NCBI GenBank assembly: GCA_965116565.1
Contig: OZ220699.1
Coordinates: 57,837-121,836, forward strand
Length of the DNA: 64,000 nt
Source of the DNA: Dehalococcoidia bacterium
GTDB lineage: Bacteria; Chloroflexota; Dehalococcoidia; Lucifugimonadales; UBA3495
Reading direction: 5' to 3'
Of the stretch, positions 2,032 to 8,663 are shown piece after piece. The position numbers and the translations under genes were made by a program. Positions within the stretch are counted from its first letter, which is position 1, and every line of letters begins with the position of its first letter. Under the pieces are notes generated by a model. The model was not told where the DNA came from, did not search any database, and was given only the letters and a program-made list of their open reading frames with translations.

Positions 2032-5000
2032 CTACGGCTGGTAGTCCAGTGGAGTGGCCGCGGGAGCCCAGTTGGTCCACTCAGTGCCGTCCCGACCCCC
2101 AACCACGAAGACGTGGTAGGTGCCGGCCGGGCGCTCTGACATGTTGACCATGAAAGGAGTGCCGGTGGGTGCATGGTCGAACACGGCGTTGGGAATGTCC
2201 CATTCGTCATTCGCATCACGCCGGATCATCGCCACGTAGAAGGTGTCGGCGTTCTCGCCGCCCTCCCAGGTGACCGTGACCTGGACTCCGTCGTGGCTGG
2301 CCATGACGCCGCTCGGCGCCATCAGCTCGGCCGGGGCCATCGCCTCGGTCGTGGCCGATTTCTCGTCAGACCACTCGCCAGCGCCCTTGGCGTTGACCGC
2401 CTTCACCCGGTAGGTGTACTCGGTCTCCGCCATCAGGCCAGTGTCCTCGTAGGAGGTCACATCGCCAACTACGGCGTAGCGCTTCATGAAGTACTCGTCC
2501 ACCGTCATCTTGTCGGCTTCAGCAAGCCCCGCGTACATCTTGCAGAACGGGTTGTCGCTGTCGGCAGTGCGATCGTCCATGACCGCCGCAACCATGGCTT
2601 CGCAGCCAAGGCCGTCCCACCAGGTCTGCGCGTCCGTGAACGCGTCGCCCATGGCGTCCTCATGGTCGAGGAACATCATGTCGCCGTACTTGCGCTCGAT
2701 GATGAATCCGGTAACCGGCGCGCCAGCGGGATCCGCCGGAGCGGTCCACGACACGGTGATTGCCATGTCGCTGTCGGCCGTCGCCGTCACGCCCGTGGGC
2801 GCGTCGGGAGCCATCGCGTCGTCGGTCATCGCCGTGACGTTGTCAGACTCAGGACTCACCGAATAGGTGTCAGCCGCAGTCATGTTCTGCGCCAGCACCC
2901 GGTAGGTGCGTTCGGTCAACGGCGCCAGGCCGTAGTTGGTGTAGATGGTGCGGACCATGCCGTTCATGTTGTCGGCGTCGTCGCTATCCATTATGCGCGC
3001 CACTTCCATCCACTCGCCGTCCATATCGTATTCGATGATGTAGGCCACGATGGGCGCGGCGTCGGGGGTGCGGGACTGTACGTTCCACATCAGGTTGATC
3101 ATGGTCGCGCCCATGGCTTCCGCCACCAGGCCTTCCGGCTTGTCCGGCGCCTTGGCTACCGGTGTGGTTGCGGTTGCGGTGTCGGACCAGTCGCTCTTCA
3201 GCTCCGGCACGCCCTTGTTTATTGTCAGCACCCGGTAACGCCTGGTCTGGCCGGGCAGCAGCCCTTCGTGCGTGTACGAGCAGTCATTGCCATCGCACGC
3301 CGCCTTCACCGTCACGGTGGCCAGGGCCTCCCAGCTGTCGCTGTCGTTCTCGGACACTTCGATTTCGTACTTGATGATCTCGCCAAAGCCGTCGCCGTCT
3401 CCGCCGCCGTCGGCGTCACGAGCGGGGCGCTCCCATTCGAGAATGATCTCGGTCGGGGTGCGCTGCGACGTCTTCGCCTCGACGTTCATCGGCCGGCCTG
3501 GCTTTTCAGCATTCGTGGTCGTGGCCGATGCCCGCACCGGCAGGCTGTACGCTTCGCCGTTCACAGTTGTGGGCTCGATGGTTGCCGGGGCATTCTTGGC
3601 GAACACCTCGTAGGTGTACTCCACGCCAGCCTTCCGGCCGGTGTGCGAATACATGCACTTGCCCGTGCTCATGTTGCAGATGTCTGCATCGGCCATGTCG
3701 GGCGTCAGCAGTGTCCAATCACTGGCGTCGGGATCGGTGGACCACCGTACCCGGTAGTGCGTGGCATACACCTTGTCGTCGTCCGTGGCCGACCCATCAG
3801 GCGTCGGGTCGTGCGAGTAGGTCCGTTCCCACTCCAGGTCGATCTTGGTCCGACCGCCATCGGTGTCTTGGTCCTTCATCGCCTCCAAGTCTCCGGGCGG
3901 CATCTGCAGATACACGCTCGACGGCGCAATGACCAGGTCATCGCCGTCGGGTCGGAGAATGAAAGTGGAGGTCCCCTCGTCAGTGAAGGTTATGGTTTGG
4001 GATGTCGCCTGGGCGGTATCAGCACCGGGGGCGATCACGGTTCCGGTAGCGTCCAGCGGAGCGTTGTTAGTATCCACGAGCGTGTAGCCGCCAGGGATTT
4101 TTACCATTACGACTATTTGTTCATTGGTCCCCAACTGGACTGCGTCCACGTTGGGATCAACGGTTGTGTCTTCGTCGACTTCTTCCAGTTCGACGGTAAA
4201 CGTCTGGTTGGTTGCCACTGCGGGTGTAGGCGCCGCGTCCATCCTACTGGGGCGCGCGTAGACCACCATGCTGGGCGTGATCTCCAAGCTGGGTGTTCTC
4301 ACTGGGACTGGGGTGGGCGCTTCGCCCGGCGTCACAGTTGTACCGTCTGTAGTGTCGTCGTCCGTAACGGTTACGGTAACGTCGGCCACATCGATTCCAG
4401 CGTATGTGGTGTCAGCACTGGCTACCGTATGGGTCAAGGTTGCCGTGTCGTTATCGGCATCGGCGCCTTCTTCTGCGGCGGTAACCGTCACCGTCTGGCC
4501 TATCCACCAGTTTGCGGTGGTGAATGCCGAAAGCGTGGAGGCAGACACGTCGGTATTGTCACTGGCGATTGTCACCGTCACATCTGCGGTGGGCGCGCGG
4601 GTCAATACCACCATGTACGTTGCGGTGTTGGCGTCGCCGCCGCCCGCCGCCTCTGTTACCGCCAGGCTGGTATCGGAGATATACACCCCCGGCTCATCGG
4701 TCACGGCCACGTTTTTGATCGTCACGCTGTTGATTGTGAGGCCGCTGAATCCTGCGGGCGCGTCGGAGACATCCACCGTGGGCTGGATGGTCGTGGTCTG
4801 CTGCACGATGTCAAGGTCGTTCAGGCTCACGTGGATGGAGTCCGACATGTTTGGCTGGGCTCCAGTTGGCGAGAGCGCCGCATCGTAAACGGTGGGCACG
4901 TCCTTGACCGTGCGCTCCCACACCCGGTTCAGGGCAAACACCCGGAACTCCCACTGCAGGTTCGCAAAGTAGGTCTCGAAGTCGCCGACATGACCTTCCA

Positions 5001-6192
5001 GGTCGGACATCGTCATGTCGTCGCCGTCGGTCTTGGTGTTGGCGTCTTTGTTCCACGCCACTCGGGCCGCCCGCCTCAGCTCCACCGCGTGATCGGTGAG
5101 CAGCAGGTCGGAGGTGGTCGCGGCGTGAAGGATGATCGCGTTGTCGGATTCATTGCCCCACATCACGTCGGTGTCGGTGCTTACCGGATCGTGTACCGAG
5201 CCGTCAATGTCGGTCATCGGGCGGCCCTGGATCAGGTAGCCGTTGACCGGCGCTCCGGCTGGATCGTCGGGAACCTCCCAGTAGATCCGGATGTCATTCT
5301 CCGACCTGTTCACCGACGCCCACAGGTCGGTCGGCGGGGCGGGCAGCACACCGTCGTCGGTGGTCGCGGACTTGCTGTCCGAAGCGTCGCCCGTGCCAAC
5401 GGTGCCCATGGCGTCTTCGTTCACCGCGTAGATCTGGAAGTGCCACGTCTGGTGCTCCAGCAGGCCGTCGAAGGTGTACTGGCAGTCCAGGCCGTCATTG
5501 CCTGCGGTGAAGCCGCAGTAAACGTGGTCGTCGTCCGCCTCGTCGATATTGTTCACCACCGTGAGGGATTGTACCTGGTCGTCCAGGCTCAGGTCTGCCG
5601 GGTTGATCGCGTAGGCGATCTTGTACTCGACGATGCTGGTTCCGTCCGGTTCGTCCGGCTCGTCCCAGCGCAGCGTGATCATGGTGCGCGTTGCGTCGGT
5701 GGCGCTGGAGGGCGGATTCACCGCCGTGCCCCGGGTCGCCGTTACGTCGTCTGGATCCTCCGGCGTGGTGGAGGCATCCGTGACCGCCATGGCTGGCGTC
5801 GGGAATGCCACCGGGCCGATCTTCGTGCCGCTGGTGTTGTGGGCGAAGATCCGGTAGTACTTCGTCTCCCGCGCCGACAGGCCGGTGTCCTCGTACTCCG
5901 TGGCCTGGGCCGGCAGGCTGCCGTCCTCCAGTTGCCAGGTGAGACCGTCGTCGGATACGTCAATCCGGTATGCGGTGGGTCGCCCGCCATCGGTGGGCGC
6001 GTCCCACGTCAACTTCAGGCTGGTCGGGCCCGTGGATTCCAGCATTACGTTCTGGACCTGGCCCGGAGCCGCCAACGTCTGCGCCTCGGTCTCGCCGGGC
6101 TGCAGCGTCATGAAGGCGGCCAGCGCGCCGATCACGGCTACCGCCGCGATCAGTGGCACTGACCACATCAATTTTCTTGTCTTTCTACTCAT
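2032..6192 (-). CDS. Large secreted multi-fibronectin type III protein (~1386 aa) with an internal Calx-beta-like module
   Basis: Start MSRKTRKLMWSVPLIAAVAV at 6192 (SD AAGGAGA, signal peptide); many Fn3 signatures (LxWxxP...Y...DTGL..T.Y.YRV.A.N); ORF 2032..6318 has an in-frame 42-codon extension. Confidence 0.9.
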   Translation of the reverse strand: MSRKTRKLMWSVPLIAAVAVIGALAAFMTLQPGETEAQTLAAPGQVQNVMLESTGPTSLKLTWDAPTDGGRPTAYRIDVSDDGLTWQLEDGSLPAQATEYEDTGLSARETKYYRIFAHNTSGTKIGPVAFPTPAMAVTDASTTPEDPDDVTATRGTAVNPPSSATDATRTMITLRWDEPDEPDGTSIVEYKIAYAINPADLSLDDQVQSLTVVNNIDEADDDHVYCGFTAGNDGLDCQYTFDGLLEHQTWHFQIYAVNEDAMGTVGTGDASDSKSATTDDGVLPAPPTDLWASVNRSENDIRIYWEVPDDPAGAPVNGYLIQGRPMTDIDGSVHDPVSTDTDVMWGNESDNAIILHAATTSDLLLTDHAVELRRAARVAWNKDANTKTDGDDMTMSDLEGHVGDFETYFANLQWEFRVFALNRVWERTVKDVPTVYDAALSPTGAQPNMSDSIHVSLNDLDIVQQTTTIQPTVDVSDAPAGFSGLTINSVTIKNVAVTDEPGVYISDTSLAVTEAAGGGDANTATYMVVLTRAPTADVTVTIASDNTDVSASTLSAFTTANWWIGQTVTVTAAEEGADADNDTATLTHTVASADTTYAGIDVADVTVTVTDDDTTDGTTVTPGEAPTPVPVRTPSLEITPSMVVYARPSRMDAAPTPAVATNQTFTVELEEVDEDTTVDPNVDAVQLGTNEQIVVMVKIPGGYTLVDTNNAPLDATGTVIAPGADTAQATSQTITFTDEGTSTFILRPDGDDLVIAPSSVYLQMPPGDLEAMKDQDTDGGRTKIDLEWERTYSHDPTPDGSATDDDKVYATHYRVRWSTDPDASDWTLLTPDMADADICNMSTGKCMYSHTGRKAGVEYTYEVFAKNAPATIEPTTVNGEAYSLPVRASATTTNAEKPGRPMNVEAKTSQRTPTEIILEWERPARDADGGGDGDGFGEIIKYEIEVSENDSDSWEALATVTVKAACDGNDCSYTHEGLLPGQTRRYRVLTINKGVPELKSDWSDTATATTPVAKAPDKPEGLVAEAMGATMINLMWNVQSRTPDAAPIVAYIIEYDMDGEWMEVARIMDSDDADNMNGMVRTIYTNYGLAPLTERTYRVLAQNMTAADTYSVSPESDNVTAMTDDAMAPDAPTGVTATADSDMAITVSWTAPADPAGAPVTGFIIERKYGDMMFLDHEDAMGDAFTDAQTWWDGLGCEAMVAAVMDDRTADSDNPFCKMYAGLAEADKMTVDEYFMKRYAVVGDVTSYEDTGLMAETEYTYRVKAVNAKGAGEWSDEKSATTEAMAPAELMAPSGVMASHDGVQVTVTWEGGENADTFYVAMIRRDANDEWDIPNAVFDHAPTGTPFMVNMSERPAGTYHVFVVGGRDGTEWTNWAPAATPLDYQP

Positions 6193-6371
6193 TTGACAAA
6201 ATCTCCTTGTGAGATCGTCATTTGCGTGTTGGGTGTTACTCGGCGCGCCCTCGGCCCGTTGGTTCCGGGGCCAGTCAGTTTCAGTGCCCGCGGGCGGGCA
6301 GGGGGCGACTTTATACATATCCTCTCGGTTCTCACCTCCTTGCGATGAGGCCGTCGGTGGGGCCGCCCCCT

Positions 6372-6490: not shown

Positions 6491-6582
6491 GGACCAATAT
6501 TACGCGAGTATTACGGTTCACATATCATTTCGGACAATTTTCAAAAACCGCCAACCACCCTCCCCCGCTCATGGCGCCCCGT

Positions 6583-6634: not shown

Positions 6635-6642
6635 GCATCCCC

Positions 6643-6728
6643 CCGCTCATGGGGAGCCTGTCGAACCATCGTAACTGTCCCTTCTCCCTCGATGGGAGAG
6701 GGTCAGGGTGAGGGTGAAAAACCCAACC
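6643..6728 (+). repeat. 86-bp direct repeat, copy 1 (composite of two palindromic repeat families)
   Basis: 81/86 identical to 7208-7293 by eye; contains ccgctcatggNgagcctgtcgaacc and ctctccc...gggagagggtcagggtgagggtg. Confidence 0.9.
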
Positions 6729-6750
6729 ACCCACCAATCCACCAAACCCA

Positions 6751-6780
6751 ATCCTGTGAATCCTGTATATCCCTGTAAAA
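6751..6780 (+). repeat. atcctgt-type repeat (also at 7463-7492, part at 7515-7530)
   Basis: atcctgtgaatcctgtatatccctgtaaaa vs atcctgtttatcctgtatatccctgtaaaa, 28/30 identical. Confidence 0.8.
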
Positions 6781-6788
6781 CAAACCCC

Positions 6789-6817
6789 TTGACAACCCAT
6801 ACCCAAACAGATAATCT
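6789..6817 (+). promoter_or_regulatory. Sigma70-type promoter TTGACA-N17-TAATCT
   Basis: TTGACA 6789-6794, 17-bp spacer, TAATCT 6812-6817. Confidence 0.6.
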
Positions 6818-6834
6818 AATATCAGCCAAGGCAA

Positions 6835-6846
6835 GAACGCGTGTTC
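6835..6846. promoter_or_regulatory. Putative LexA (SOS) box GAAC-GCGT-GTTC
   Basis: Exact match to GAAC-RNRY-GTTC, just downstream of the predicted transcription start. Confidence 0.6.
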
Positions 6847-7207
6847 CATCAACGACCCCAGGGAGGCAGAACCCAGGCATCGACGGCCAACCCCGTCAGT
6901 AAAAATCGCAACCGGCCCAGGTGGCAACCGCCGCTCAAAGACCTGACTCCTCAACGGCATTCGCCCCACTGGCGTCCCCGGGACTGTCCGAGCCCGCGCG
7001 CAGGCGCGCACCAAGCGCGCTGAGTACACGGAAAAGTAGGTCAAATAGTTGCGTGCCCAACCCGGCCGTGCGCTGACAACGATGCCAACCCTGCCTCCCG
7101 CCAAACCCCCAAACCAGCAAACACCGCCAACCAACCCCCAACCCAGCAACCAACCGCCAACCCGGCAACCCCAAAAGGAGAACCCGCCCCGAACCACCAA
7201 ACACCCA

Positions 7208-7293
7208 CCGCTCATGGCGAGCCCGTCGAACCACCGTAACTGTCCCCTCTCCCTGGATGGGAGAGGGTCAGGGTGAGGGTGAAAAACCCAACC
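7208..7293 (+). repeat. 86-bp direct repeat, copy 2
   Basis: 81/86 identical to 6643-6728; 565-bp period. Confidence 0.9.
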
Positions 7294-7346
7294 CCACAGC
7301 CGTCGTCGGGTGCATCAATACCCCGTCCGGCGCCCAGACATGCGCA

Positions 7347-7425
7347 AGGGGCGGACTCGCATCCGCCCCTGACCCCCGCTCATGGTGAGCCTGTCGAACC
7401 ATCATCCTGAGCCTGTCGAAGGATG
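7347..7425 (+). repeat. Hairpin aggggcgga/tccgcccct followed by two gagcctgtcgaa repeats
   Basis: 7347-7370 palindrome; ccgctcatggtgagcctgtcgaaccatcatcctgagcctgtcgaaggatg 7376-7425. Confidence 0.75.
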
Positions 7426-7477
7426 ACGCCTACGCACAGGTGGGTATCTACCCCAAAACCCCATCCTGTTTATCCTG

Positions 7478-7551
7478 TATATCCCTGTAAAACTCGTCCT
7501 GCAGGAACGCCAGCTATATCCCTGTAAAACTCGTCCTACAGGAACGCCAGC
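7478..7551. repeat. 37-bp tandem duplication of the DUF1501 gene 3' end
   Basis: tatatccctgtaaaactcgtcct(g/a)caggaacgccagc x2; the only mismatch is in the stop codon (TAG vs CAG). Confidence 0.9.
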
Positions 7552-8663
7552 TGCTCGTACTGCCCCCGCACGATCGGGTCGGGGTCCAGTTCCAGCCACC
7601 GGTCCAGGATCGTCGCGTACGCGGACCGGAAGTCCGTCGTGAAGTGCATGTCCCCCTCCGAGTGGTCCTCCGGCCGCAGCGACGGGTACTCGCCATACAG
7701 CCCGCCGTTCACGCCGCCGCCGATCACGAACGCCACGCCGCCCGAGCCGTGGTCCGTCCCCGTGCCGTTGTCCCGTATGCGCCGCCCGAACTCCGAGAAC
7801 ACCAGGATCAGCGTGTCGTCCAGCATCCCGTGCTCCTCCAGGTCGCTGGTGAAGTCCGCGACGGCGGTGGACACGTCCGTCCACAGCTTGGCGTGCGCCG
7901 GCAGCTCGTTGCTGTGCGTGTCAAAGCTCCCGTGCATCGTGTAGTAGAACCGCGTGCCCAGGTCCGCCGACATCACCTGCGCCATGTTCCGCAGCGACTG
8001 GCTGATCGGCGTGTCCGCATACTCCACCGATGAGGAGTACAGATCCGGCGCCGAGCGCAGCCGGTCGGCGCCCTTCAGCGCGTTCGACCCCGTCTCCGAC
8101 AGCACCTGCGCCACCACGTCCTTGGTCTCCGTCGGCCCGTAGATCCTGCTGAACGCCTCCAGCGCGTACTGCCGCGACTTCTCGTCCTGGATGTCCGGCA
8201 TCAGCCCGTAGGTCTCCAGGTTCGCCACCGATGCGACGGGCACGCCCTTGCACACCATGGCCCTCGGCAGCCCCCGCCCGAAGTTCACCCCCGTCAGCAC
8301 GTTCTCGCCCCGGGCGTCCAGGTCCCGGATCGCCGCGCCCAGCCAGCCCTCGGCCCCGATCTTCTCCGACTCGCACGTGTACCACACGTCCCGCGACCGG
8401 AAGTGCGACCGGTTCGGGTTCGGGTACCCGACCCCGTTGATCACCGCGATGTTCCCCTGGTCCCACAGGTGCTTGATCGGCGCCAGGTTGGGGTTCAGCC
8501 CCACCTCGCCGTCCAGGTGCAGCACCTCCCCCTCGGGGATGCCCACGTTGCTGCGGAAGTCGTAGTAGAGGGGGTTGTTGTAGGGGATCACCGTGTTCAG
8601 GGCATCGTTGCCGCCCTGCAGCTCAATCACCACTACCGACCTTTCCCTGTTCGTGGAAGTCAT
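7536..8663 (-). CDS. DUF1501 family protein
   Basis: VIELQGGNDALNTVIPY, NRSHF, GSFDTH, FSEFGRR, GTDHG motifs. Confidence 0.9.
   Translation of the reverse strand: MTSTNRERSVVVIELQGGNDALNTVIPYNNPLYYDFRSNVGIPEGEVLHLDGEVGLNPNLAPIKHLWDQGNIAVINGVGYPNPNRSHFRSRDVWYTCESEKIGAEGWLGAAIRDLDARGENVLTGVNFGRGLPRAMVCKGVPVASVANLETYGLMPDIQDEKSRQYALEAFSRIYGPTETKDVVAQVLSETGSNALKGADRLRSAPDLYSSSVEYADTPISQSLRNMAQVMSADLGTRFYYTMHGSFDTHSNELPAHAKLWTDVSTAVADFTSDLEEHGMLDDTLILVFSEFGRRIRDNGTGTDHGSGGVAFVIGGGVNGGLYGEYPSLRPEDHSEGDMHFTTDFRSAYATILDRWLELDPDPIVRGQYEQLAFL

Follow-up and report, generated by a model that had tools for sequence, protein, structure and literature searches.

Here, we present an analysis of a noncoding unit in a 64,000-nt stretch of DNA (the window; G000:C1:57837-121836) from a Dehalococcoidia bacterium, the genome of which is a single contig of 3.87 Mb with 62% G+C and is 94.6% complete. 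Throughout, G000 is the genome studied, G and L numbers denote related genomes and loci of the genus, and c1 to c14 are the RNA copies in G000. The unit sits in a 1.2-kb spacer between a 1428-aa open reading frame (ORF) with FN3 repeats and a DUF1501 gene. Judged from its sequence, segment 6789-7203 of the window is a solo copy of a genus-specific, multicopy structured-RNA gene with its own sigma-70-type promoter. By analogy to AbiF and its RNA in Clostridioides difficile, we suggest, with about even confidence, that this copy belongs to a new RNA family that partners a HEPN-fold protein. The parts of the RNA gene are as follows:

6789-6817, plus strand: promoter, with TTGACA (6789-6794) and TAATCT (6812-6817) separated by 17 nt; conserved at 14/14 copies and across species
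6835-6846, plus strand: palindrome GAACGCGTGTTC in the 5' leader, a perfect GAAC-N4-GTTC
6861-7099, plus strand: structured RNA core, as delimited by copies, covariation, and fold, closed by helices P1 and P2
6861-6869 with 7091-7099, plus strand: helix P1, closing the core
6876-6882 with 7080-7086, plus strand: helix P2, closing the core
7100-7203, plus strand: C/A-rich tail with a Shine-Dalgarno (SD)-like AAGGAG at 7175-7180 and no start codon behind it

Structure, copies, and distribution of the RNA family

The original prediction, which had been made for this spacer from the letters alone, described a transcription unit without an ORF that might be induced by DNA damage. Much of its anatomy was borne out: the promoter pair is present and conserved at all 14 copies, the GAAC-GCGT-GTTC box is present as GAACGCGTGTTC, the C/A-rich tract is there, and the unit is convergent with the DUF1501 gene. 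The promoter was not called by a generic promoter scan because its −10 hexamer is weak, matching TATAAT at 3/6 positions; transcription would start near 6824. As had also been noted, the unit contains a GGAGG stretch without a convincing ORF. The frames that are present are driven by composition, C/A-rich sequence being poor in stop codons, and no reading frame is conserved across the family, in which indels of 1, 2, and 4 nt, and thus not multiples of three, are common. A scan for tRNA and tmRNA found none, and a scan for intrinsic terminators, which is uninformative at 62% G+C, found 0. By comparison with the other copies, GAACGCGTGTTC is one form of a variable AAC-N4-GTT palindrome or short hairpin of the RNA family. 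The leader hairpin of the AAAC-N4-GUUU type is barely stable as an RNA structure, whole leaders folding at −0.3 to −5 kcal/mol; because of this marginal stability, the palindrome may equally be read as an RNA hairpin or as a DNA-level site of a dimeric factor.

To describe the fold, 30 sequences from 15 genomes were aligned using MAFFT, which is not structure-aware, and helices were drawn manually. As a single sequence, the RNA folds at −105.7 kcal/mol compared with −90.9 kcal/mol for shuffles (z = −3.4), beating 200/200 of them, and RNAalifold returned 38 pairs for the 30 sequences, 15 of them with compensatory changes. The manual structure has 43 pairs and comprises P1 (GAGGCAGG/CCUGCCUC), P2 (GCAUCG/CGAUGC), P3 (CGCAAC/GUUGCG), P4 and P5 in a variable arm, P6, and the variable hairpin P7. 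In this structure, 88.4% of the cells are paired, compared with 33-44% when the 3' partners are slid by 1-3 columns; 20 pairs are changed on both sides, compared with 6-12 when slid; and the covariation score is 0.272, compared with 0.05-0.08 when slid. None of 500 shuffles came up to these values. Single positions illustrate the exchanges: alignment pair 85/305 is AU in 14, UA in 12, and GC in 3 sequences, and pair 127/188 is CG in 13 and UA in 12. G-U pairs are frequent (e.g., 127/188 and 219/237), in keeping with an RNA on the plus strand. P1 is exchanged as a whole for GAGGUGA/UCACCUC in L020, L026, and L027, while P1 and P2 together are exchanged for CCGGAGAUUCAAGUC/GACUUGAAUCUCCGG in 20/20 G011 copies examined (of 49). 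The candidate pairings ACGGCC/GGCCGU and GUCAG/CUGAC are both invariant and would cross, as in a possible pseudoknot. Altogether, these data support a predicted multi-helix RNA on the plus strand, the inner helices P3 to P7 of which are backed by covariation.

The segment is not a single-copy cassette: G000 has 14 copies of it, and 28/54 genomes of the genus have 1-49 each. A blastn search with 6780-7100 returned 14 full copies in G000 at 82-94% identity, together with one 37-nt fragment. Similarity among the aligned copies starts at the −35 hexamer, and the flanks beyond promoter and tail are unrelated. Each copy has the same order, i.e., promoter, variable palindrome, ~240 nt that are near-invariant, and a C/A-rich tail that bears an AAGGAG-like motif. 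Both promoter hexamers are conserved around a variable spacer, in the 14 G000 copies as in other species, and two promoter classes recur: TTGACA-N17-TAT(A/T/C)CT and GACACC..TTGCCC-N17-CTATCCT. In addition, an isolated fragment at G000:C1:159629-159707 matches only the first ~80 positions of the RNA profile (E 2e-9) and is probably a truncated copy.

A strict 3' motif, GTTGCGT-N3-14-CGGCCGT-N2-5-TGACAACG, which recovers 14/14 G000 copies, matched 28/54 genus genomes with 1-49 copies each (49 in the 3.3-Mb genome of G011, 21 in G454, 21 in G024, and 14 in G000); the reversed-pattern control had 0 matches. Because an nhmmer profile finds diverged homologues in some pattern-negative genomes, 28/54 is a lower bound. 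With blastn, the core was found in 16/24 other same-genus genomes and in 0/16 genomes from other families of the order. In 400 other genomes of the class, a draw that held one genome of the same family and none of the genus, a slightly extended version of the motif had 0 matches. In the samples searched, the putative RNA family is therefore genus-wide and genus-restricted. Several loci are syntenic across species (c7 with L007, L009, L010, and L012; c14 with L011; and c1 with G018). Within each genome, the solo copies would owe their likeness to recent spread or to gene conversion.

Two scans against Rfam 15, which includes abiF, HEARO, 6S, RNase P, tmRNA, and riboswitches, with E limits of 1 and 10, returned chance-level rows only; the best reached 14-21 bits compared with thresholds of 37-70 and lay on the wrong strand or on a flanking hairpin repeat. 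A description of the RNA was not found in the literature on SAR202 noncoding RNA or on structured or multicopy RNA in Chloroflexi. By these comparisons, the predicted RNA family matches no described RNA family. As for the surroundings of other copies, HicA/HicB-like toxin-antitoxin genes lie upstream of c8 (3018 kb; Pfam matches), and HicB-like small ORFs lie downstream of c11 (3593 kb; read from the sequence).

A predicted HEPN-fold protein encoded beside the RNA

Behind c7 (2414495-2414815), which at 82% is the most divergent copy in G000, come an ORF of ~190 aa (2414943-2415548) and then a thiamine pyrophosphate (TPP)-enzyme gene. The same order of RNA, ORF, and TPP-enzyme gene is found in G005, G010, G014, and G002, where the RNA is present in 1-3 copies. 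Based on a comparison of coordinates, in 23 of the 28 pattern-positive genomes, the best tblastn match of the ORF is directly preceded by an RNA copy with the same orientation; in the five others, the RNA coordinates are unlisted or on other contigs. Ten upstream regions of ORF homologues were also searched with the nhmmer profile. Nine of these regions belong to pattern-negative genomes and the tenth to the G000 paralogue at 917051-917563, and eight contain a diverged RNA homologue (two in G021, one each in G004, G009, G013, G455, and G462, and G000 917674-917938); the regions from G019 and G453 were negative.

The ~190-aa protein has a tblastn match in 52/54 genus genomes, often with several paralogues. 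Its family is small: a word-based search returned 10 relatives among 5.8 billion proteins, and a profile search returned 91 cluster representatives among 1.84 billion. The AlphaFold2 model of the protein has a mean predicted local distance difference test (pLDDT) score of 80, with residues 1-130 mostly above 88. Aligned using VIA-align, the model matched HEPN structures with Z values of 16.2, 14.2, 13.9, 12.6, and 12.1, and HEPN or related domains account for 8 of the 9 best rows; the top match was 2hsb (Z = 16.2, root mean square deviation 2.5 Å over 120 residues), followed by 1wol (14.2) and 1ufb (13.9). Accordingly modeled, the N-terminal 124 residues form a four-helix up-down bundle of the HEPN fold. 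In the family alignment, the motif RRSASH (R33-x4-H38) is nearly invariant and fits the Rx4-6H pattern.

Because the arrangement of promoter, RNA, and HEPN gene is the same as in RCd22/AbiF, we suggest that the RNA is a partner of the HEPN-fold protein. RCd22 is reported to be a structured RNA of C. difficile that is encoded upstream of the HEPN toxin AbiF and binds and neutralizes it in cis and in trans (PMC12373285). By this analogy, the founder copies, those upstream of the protein gene, would encode an RNA inhibitor or regulator that would bind the HEPN-fold protein and neutralize or control it, acting in cis at their own locus. The solo copies, including that in the window, would be amplified extra RNA genes that would act on the protein in trans, as RCd22 does on AbiF. 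We estimate the chances of this AbiF-like reading of the window unit as about equal to those of its being wrong.

Several observations weigh against this reading. First, the pairs of the 43-pair structure were counted on the very sequences from which it had been drawn, using an alignment that ignores structure, and the copies are related, so that the shuffle counts overstate the support. Second, contigs from RNA libraries of three studies (X19, X20, and X21) carry family members at ~90-95% identity over 6902-7082/7085, and these show presence in RNA libraries, not transcription, as assembled contigs give neither starts, ends, nor expression levels; the boundary that the contigs share, at 6902, falls on an indel that is polymorphic among the copies, so that we do not read it as an RNA end. 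Third, the HEPN assignment is that of a predicted model, helical bundles give a high background of Z values, helix 2 of that same model is where the candidate Rx4H motif falls, and Foldseek against the PDB was weak, with a best E of 5.7e-3. Fourth, the protein has no match in Pfam (E up to 1), PHROG, PADLOC, or NCBIfam, and PADLOC at E up to 1 found no model in 10/10 members of the protein family. Finally, the next downstream gene is co-oriented with the RNA in 12/14 G000 copies (one-sided binomial p ~0.007), as would suit a cis-acting leader just as well, and the perfect LexA-type box in the window copy is left as a coincidence.

The HEPN-fold protein is itself multicopy in some genomes, with 18 tblastn matches in G021, 11 in G458, 8 in G466, and 7 each in G463 and G015. 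At the two loci examined in G021, a diverged RNA lies upstream, and the whole RNA-protein module may have been amplified in these species. Among public proteins, the HEPN-fold ORF of P0002, P0004 to P0007, and P0009 is called from an ATG inside the conserved CCGUAUGCUGACAACG of the RNA; the resulting N-terminal extensions (MLTTKRNPAS...) are poorly conserved and probably not translated.

Leader, operator, and mobile-element alternatives

The alternative that survives best, although we hold it to be unlikely, is that the element is a promoter plus a structured 5' untranslated region for downstream genes, by which many operons come under one shared factor, which might be the HEPN-fold protein or a small ligand. 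On this model, the copy in the window would count as an orphan whose transcript runs into the DUF1501 gene from its 3' end. Besides the co-orientation bias in G000, the tails argue for this model: their SD-like motifs are conserved and occur only beside RNA copies (10/10 genomic matches), and in G011 the tails end in an SD followed by ATG-NNN-TGA or run straight into an ORF. Moreover, the 5' strand of P1 (CCGGAGAAUC) recurs in the SD region of three G011 copies, as expected of an expression platform of the riboswitch type, and the 3' strand of P1 is anti-SD-like (CCUCUC/CCUCCC). That promoters are reused within a genome is also a published concept (PMC3575422). However, among the 20 G011 copies examined (of 49), co-orientation with the downstream gene is seen in only 10 and divergence from the upstream gene in 16, and two G000 copies, including that in the window, are convergent with their neighbor. 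In G000, the actual start codons lie 120-800 nt past the tail motifs, and the genes that follow differ in function (M20 peptidase, rhodanese, PCMT, short-chain dehydrogenase/reductase, TPP enzymes, luciferase-like monooxygenase, cyclase, methyltransferase, major facilitator superfamily transporter, and BNR). Also, riboswitch paralogues are normally not >90% identical within one genome. The leader model and that of an RNA partner of the HEPN-fold protein are not mutually exclusive. As a separate observation on the tails, most of the 20 G011 copies (L066-L085) have an AGGA followed after ~7 nt by a start-X-stop mini-ORF (ATG-NNN-TGA; e.g., ATGACTTGA, ATGAAATGA, and ATGAGATGA) ~150-200 nt past the core, and in three G011 copies a longer ORF starts at this position.

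The SOS part of the original prediction depends on the leader palindrome. GAAC-N4-GTTC is the consensus of the Cheo-type SOS operator of LexA. G000 has one lexA and one recA gene. The lexA promoters of the genus keep GAAC-N4-(G/T)TT(T/C) just past the −10 hexamer (AACA in 30/30 genomes and the preceding G in 28/30), and the recA promoters keep GGAAC-N4-GTGC inside the spacer (GGAAC in 28/29 genomes and GTGC in 26/29). Because of this conservation, we conclude that the operators of the genus are of the Cheo type and keep the GAAC half, in line with the original prediction. The lexA operator region of the G000 subclade, TGTTCGCAACGAACAAAGTTTCC (G000:C1:885419-886400; L041), contains both an inverted TGTTC-N5-GAACA and GAAC-AAAG-TTTC; elsewhere in the genus, this region is one base longer.

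It is improbable, in our view, that the window copy and c10 alone are repressed by LexA and induced by DNA damage. The box at 6835-6846 is a perfect GAAC-N4-GTTC located 17 nt past the −10 hexamer, which makes binding of LexA to the window copy physically plausible; it is nearer to the ideal palindrome than the sites of lexA and recA themselves, and the LexA of this organism very likely reads this type of box. However, the GAAC half is found in only 2/14 G000 copies and 4/48 family members. Among the 48 RNA copies for which the leader palindrome was examined, two have GAAC-N4-GTTC, two GAAC-N4-GTKY, 18 AAAC-N4-GTTT, four RAAC-N4-GTTY, and 11 AAC-N4-GTT only, while the remaining 11 have something else, such as AGCACGUGCU or AAUCCGCCUGGGGCGGAUU; a long hairpin, AAUCCGCC..GGCGGAUU, can also occupy this position. 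Because the changes are symmetric and keep the pairs, selection appears to be on the palindrome as such rather than on contacts with LexA. Nor is the box alone above chance, since exact GAAC-N4-GTTC occurs 30 times in the 3.87-Mb genome compared with ~46 expected from base composition. LexA control of the whole RNA family is thus not supported by these comparisons, and GAAC-N4-GTTC in the window would be a variant of the AAC-N4-GTT palindrome of the family rather than a sign of SOS membership. Of the DNA-damage-inducible noncoding RNA that had been proposed, the noncoding, promoter-driven RNA gene is supported, based on promoters, covariation, and the lack of a frame, while the SOS box is not a trait of the family.

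The remaining alternatives concern the repeats that bracket the unit. The neighboring genes and the repeats are the following:

2032-6318, minus strand: ORF of 1428 aa with FN3 repeats, from the ORF list
6639-6733, plus strand: upstream composite repeat, 86/95 nt, of a repetitive extragenic palindromic (REP)-like module CCGCTCATGGNGAGCCNGTCGAACCA and a hairpin CCCTTCTCCC..GGGAGAGGGTCAGGGTGAGGGTGA, from repeat search and blastn
6739-6781, plus strand: ATCCTGT-rich element just 5' of the −35 hexamer
7204-7298, plus strand: downstream composite repeat, 86/95 nt, from repeat search and blastn
7375-7427, plus strand: further REP-like unit GCTCATGGTGAGCCTGTCGAACCATCATCCTGAGCCTGTCGAAGGATGA, from sequence and repeat comparison
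7451-7493, plus strand: ATCCTGT-rich element, second copy, shared with the G018 locus
7536-8663, minus strand: DUF1501 gene, convergent with the RNA unit

The 86-bp direct repeats of the original prediction are present. The composite pair spans 95 nt at 92% identity, of which the inner 86 nt are identical at 81/86 positions (94.2%), and the two starts are 565 bp apart. The ATCCTGT-rich pair (43 nt, 88%) also brackets the RNA unit, and AATCC/ATCCTG-like motifs lie 5' of the promoters at other RNA copies as well. Together with a C/A-rich similarity between 6542-6563 and 7118-7139, this second pair reveals a larger, decayed duplication of the flank around the RNA gene. Based on a genome-wide count, the 86-bp repeat consists of two interspersed modules: the REP-like module GCTCATGGNGAGCCNGTCGAA, with 32 copies in G000 and 91 of its 14-nt core, and the hairpin module GGGAGAGGGT..GGGTGAGGG, with three exact-type copies. 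At the orthologous G018 locus, the RNA and the 7451-7493 element are present and the downstream 86-bp composite is absent. The 86-bp repeats would be REP-like insertions into fast-changing flanks. The hairpin module (6678-6715 and 7243-7280) weakly resembles Rfam whalefall-1 (16.9 bits compared with a threshold of 37; E 0.48) and is plentiful in the sequencing runs examined. In addition, a 37-nt unit, TATATCCCTGTAAAACTCGTCCT.CAGGAACGCCAGC, is tandemly duplicated (97%) at 7478-7551, where it repeats the last codons of the DUF1501 gene, its stop codon, and the 3' flank.

That the unit is a nonautonomous DNA element similar to a miniature inverted-repeat transposable element (MITE), with P1 and P2 as terminal inverted repeats, an incidental RNA fold, and flanking direct repeats that mark insertion or recombination, strikes us as very improbable. 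Copy number does vary from 0 to 49 within one genus with near-identical copies within a genome, P1 and P2 together amount to an inverted repeat of ~20-25 bp, and a REP-like unit lies 50-110 nt past the core, on the same strand, at 7/14 RNA copies. However, P1 is not terminal, as the conserved unit begins upstream with the promoter and leader, and the internal helices covary using G-U pairs, which are mismatches on the other strand. The synteny of c7, c14, and c1 across species also argues against such an element. G000 has no transposase of the IS200 type or of the REP-associated tyrosine transposase (RAYT) type and no reverse transcriptase (PF01797, for the RAYT [Y1] transposase, has 0 matches in this 94.6% complete genome), and the RNA copy closest to its single TnpB is 60 kb away. 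A clean empty site did not turn up: G024 and G446 give no usable one, as their similarity to the window ends exactly at the stop codon of the DUF1501 gene. The suggestion that the cassette loops out via its 86-bp repeats was not borne out either: besides the G018 locus, which lacks the downstream composite, no joint skipping 565 bp was present in the contigs of four runs, including that which contains the locus, assembled contigs being known to drop rare variants. A 705-bp joint (6669 to 7375) was rejected as an excision; it has 25 foreign letters between its sides and derives from REP-like units at other loci.

Finally, a decayed protein-coding SOS gene, for which only the position of the box speaks, can practically be dismissed because the 14 copies and dozens of orthologues conserve base pairing and not a reading frame.

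Comparison with known systems

We return to the RNA as the putative partner of the HEPN-fold protein. The pairing of a structured RNA with a HEPN protein is of a known kind; what is new is the massive amplification of the RNA gene. The unusual traits are the presence of up to 49 copies in a 3.3-Mb genome, the restriction to one genus, and the conserved tie to a tiny family of HEPN-fold proteins. More tentatively, and with clearly less confidence than in the pairing itself, we speculate that this is an undescribed RNA-protein system in which a large RNA neutralizes or steers a minimal HEPN protein, probably an RNase, and in which the 14-49 solo copies serve as an antitoxin buffer or as operon-wide leaders. 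If the RNA is an inhibitor or guide, the AbiF/RCd22 principle would extend to a new phylum and a new architecture, and the question would become why the RNA half alone is amplified. To our knowledge, large, strongly covarying bacterial RNAs outside described families are rare, and each one that has been characterized revealed new biochemistry. For annotation, the RNA accounts for 14 "empty" intergenic regions here and for hundreds in related genomes, and it identifies ORFs that gene callers extend into the RNA.

Two kinds of repeated DNA invite comparison. REP sequences and REPINs resemble the 86-bp flanking repeats, which are short, hairpin-forming, and interspersed in tens of copies, and the RNA family shares with REP/REPIN and MITE-type repeats a variable copy number; what sets the RNA element apart is its promoter, its complex fold, and its syntenic copies. 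Reused or putatively mobile promoters are, according to PMC3575422, highly similar promoter-bearing regions in front of unrelated genes of one genome. Here, in contrast, the repeated unit is mainly a covarying RNA of 240 nt, and half of the G011 copies examined have no co-oriented downstream gene.

With Cheo-type operators, the window copy shares a perfect box at an operator-like position, while the GAAC half of this box is not kept in the RNA family (4/48).

Type III antitoxins (those of ToxIN and relatives) are short tandem RNA repeats that are processed by the toxin. The order of promoter, RNA, and protein gene is alike, as is the RNA as the proposed direct inhibitor of a protein; in contrast, a repeat search and the alignment of copies found no tandem repeats inside the RNA, which would be a single large structured molecule, and the protein has another fold.

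The closest likeness is to AbiF and RCd22, the latter of which acts like a type III antitoxin (PMC12373285). As in that system (same source), a structured RNA gene with its own promoter lies directly upstream of, and co-oriented with, a HEPN-type gene. Unlike AbiF, the protein here is ~190 aa, has neither an Abi_2 nor any other Pfam match, and belongs to a small family; unlike the RCd22/abiF motif, the RNA is ~240 nt, has another predicted fold, and has no Rfam match. Moreover, the RNA gene is amplified to 14-49 mostly solo copies.

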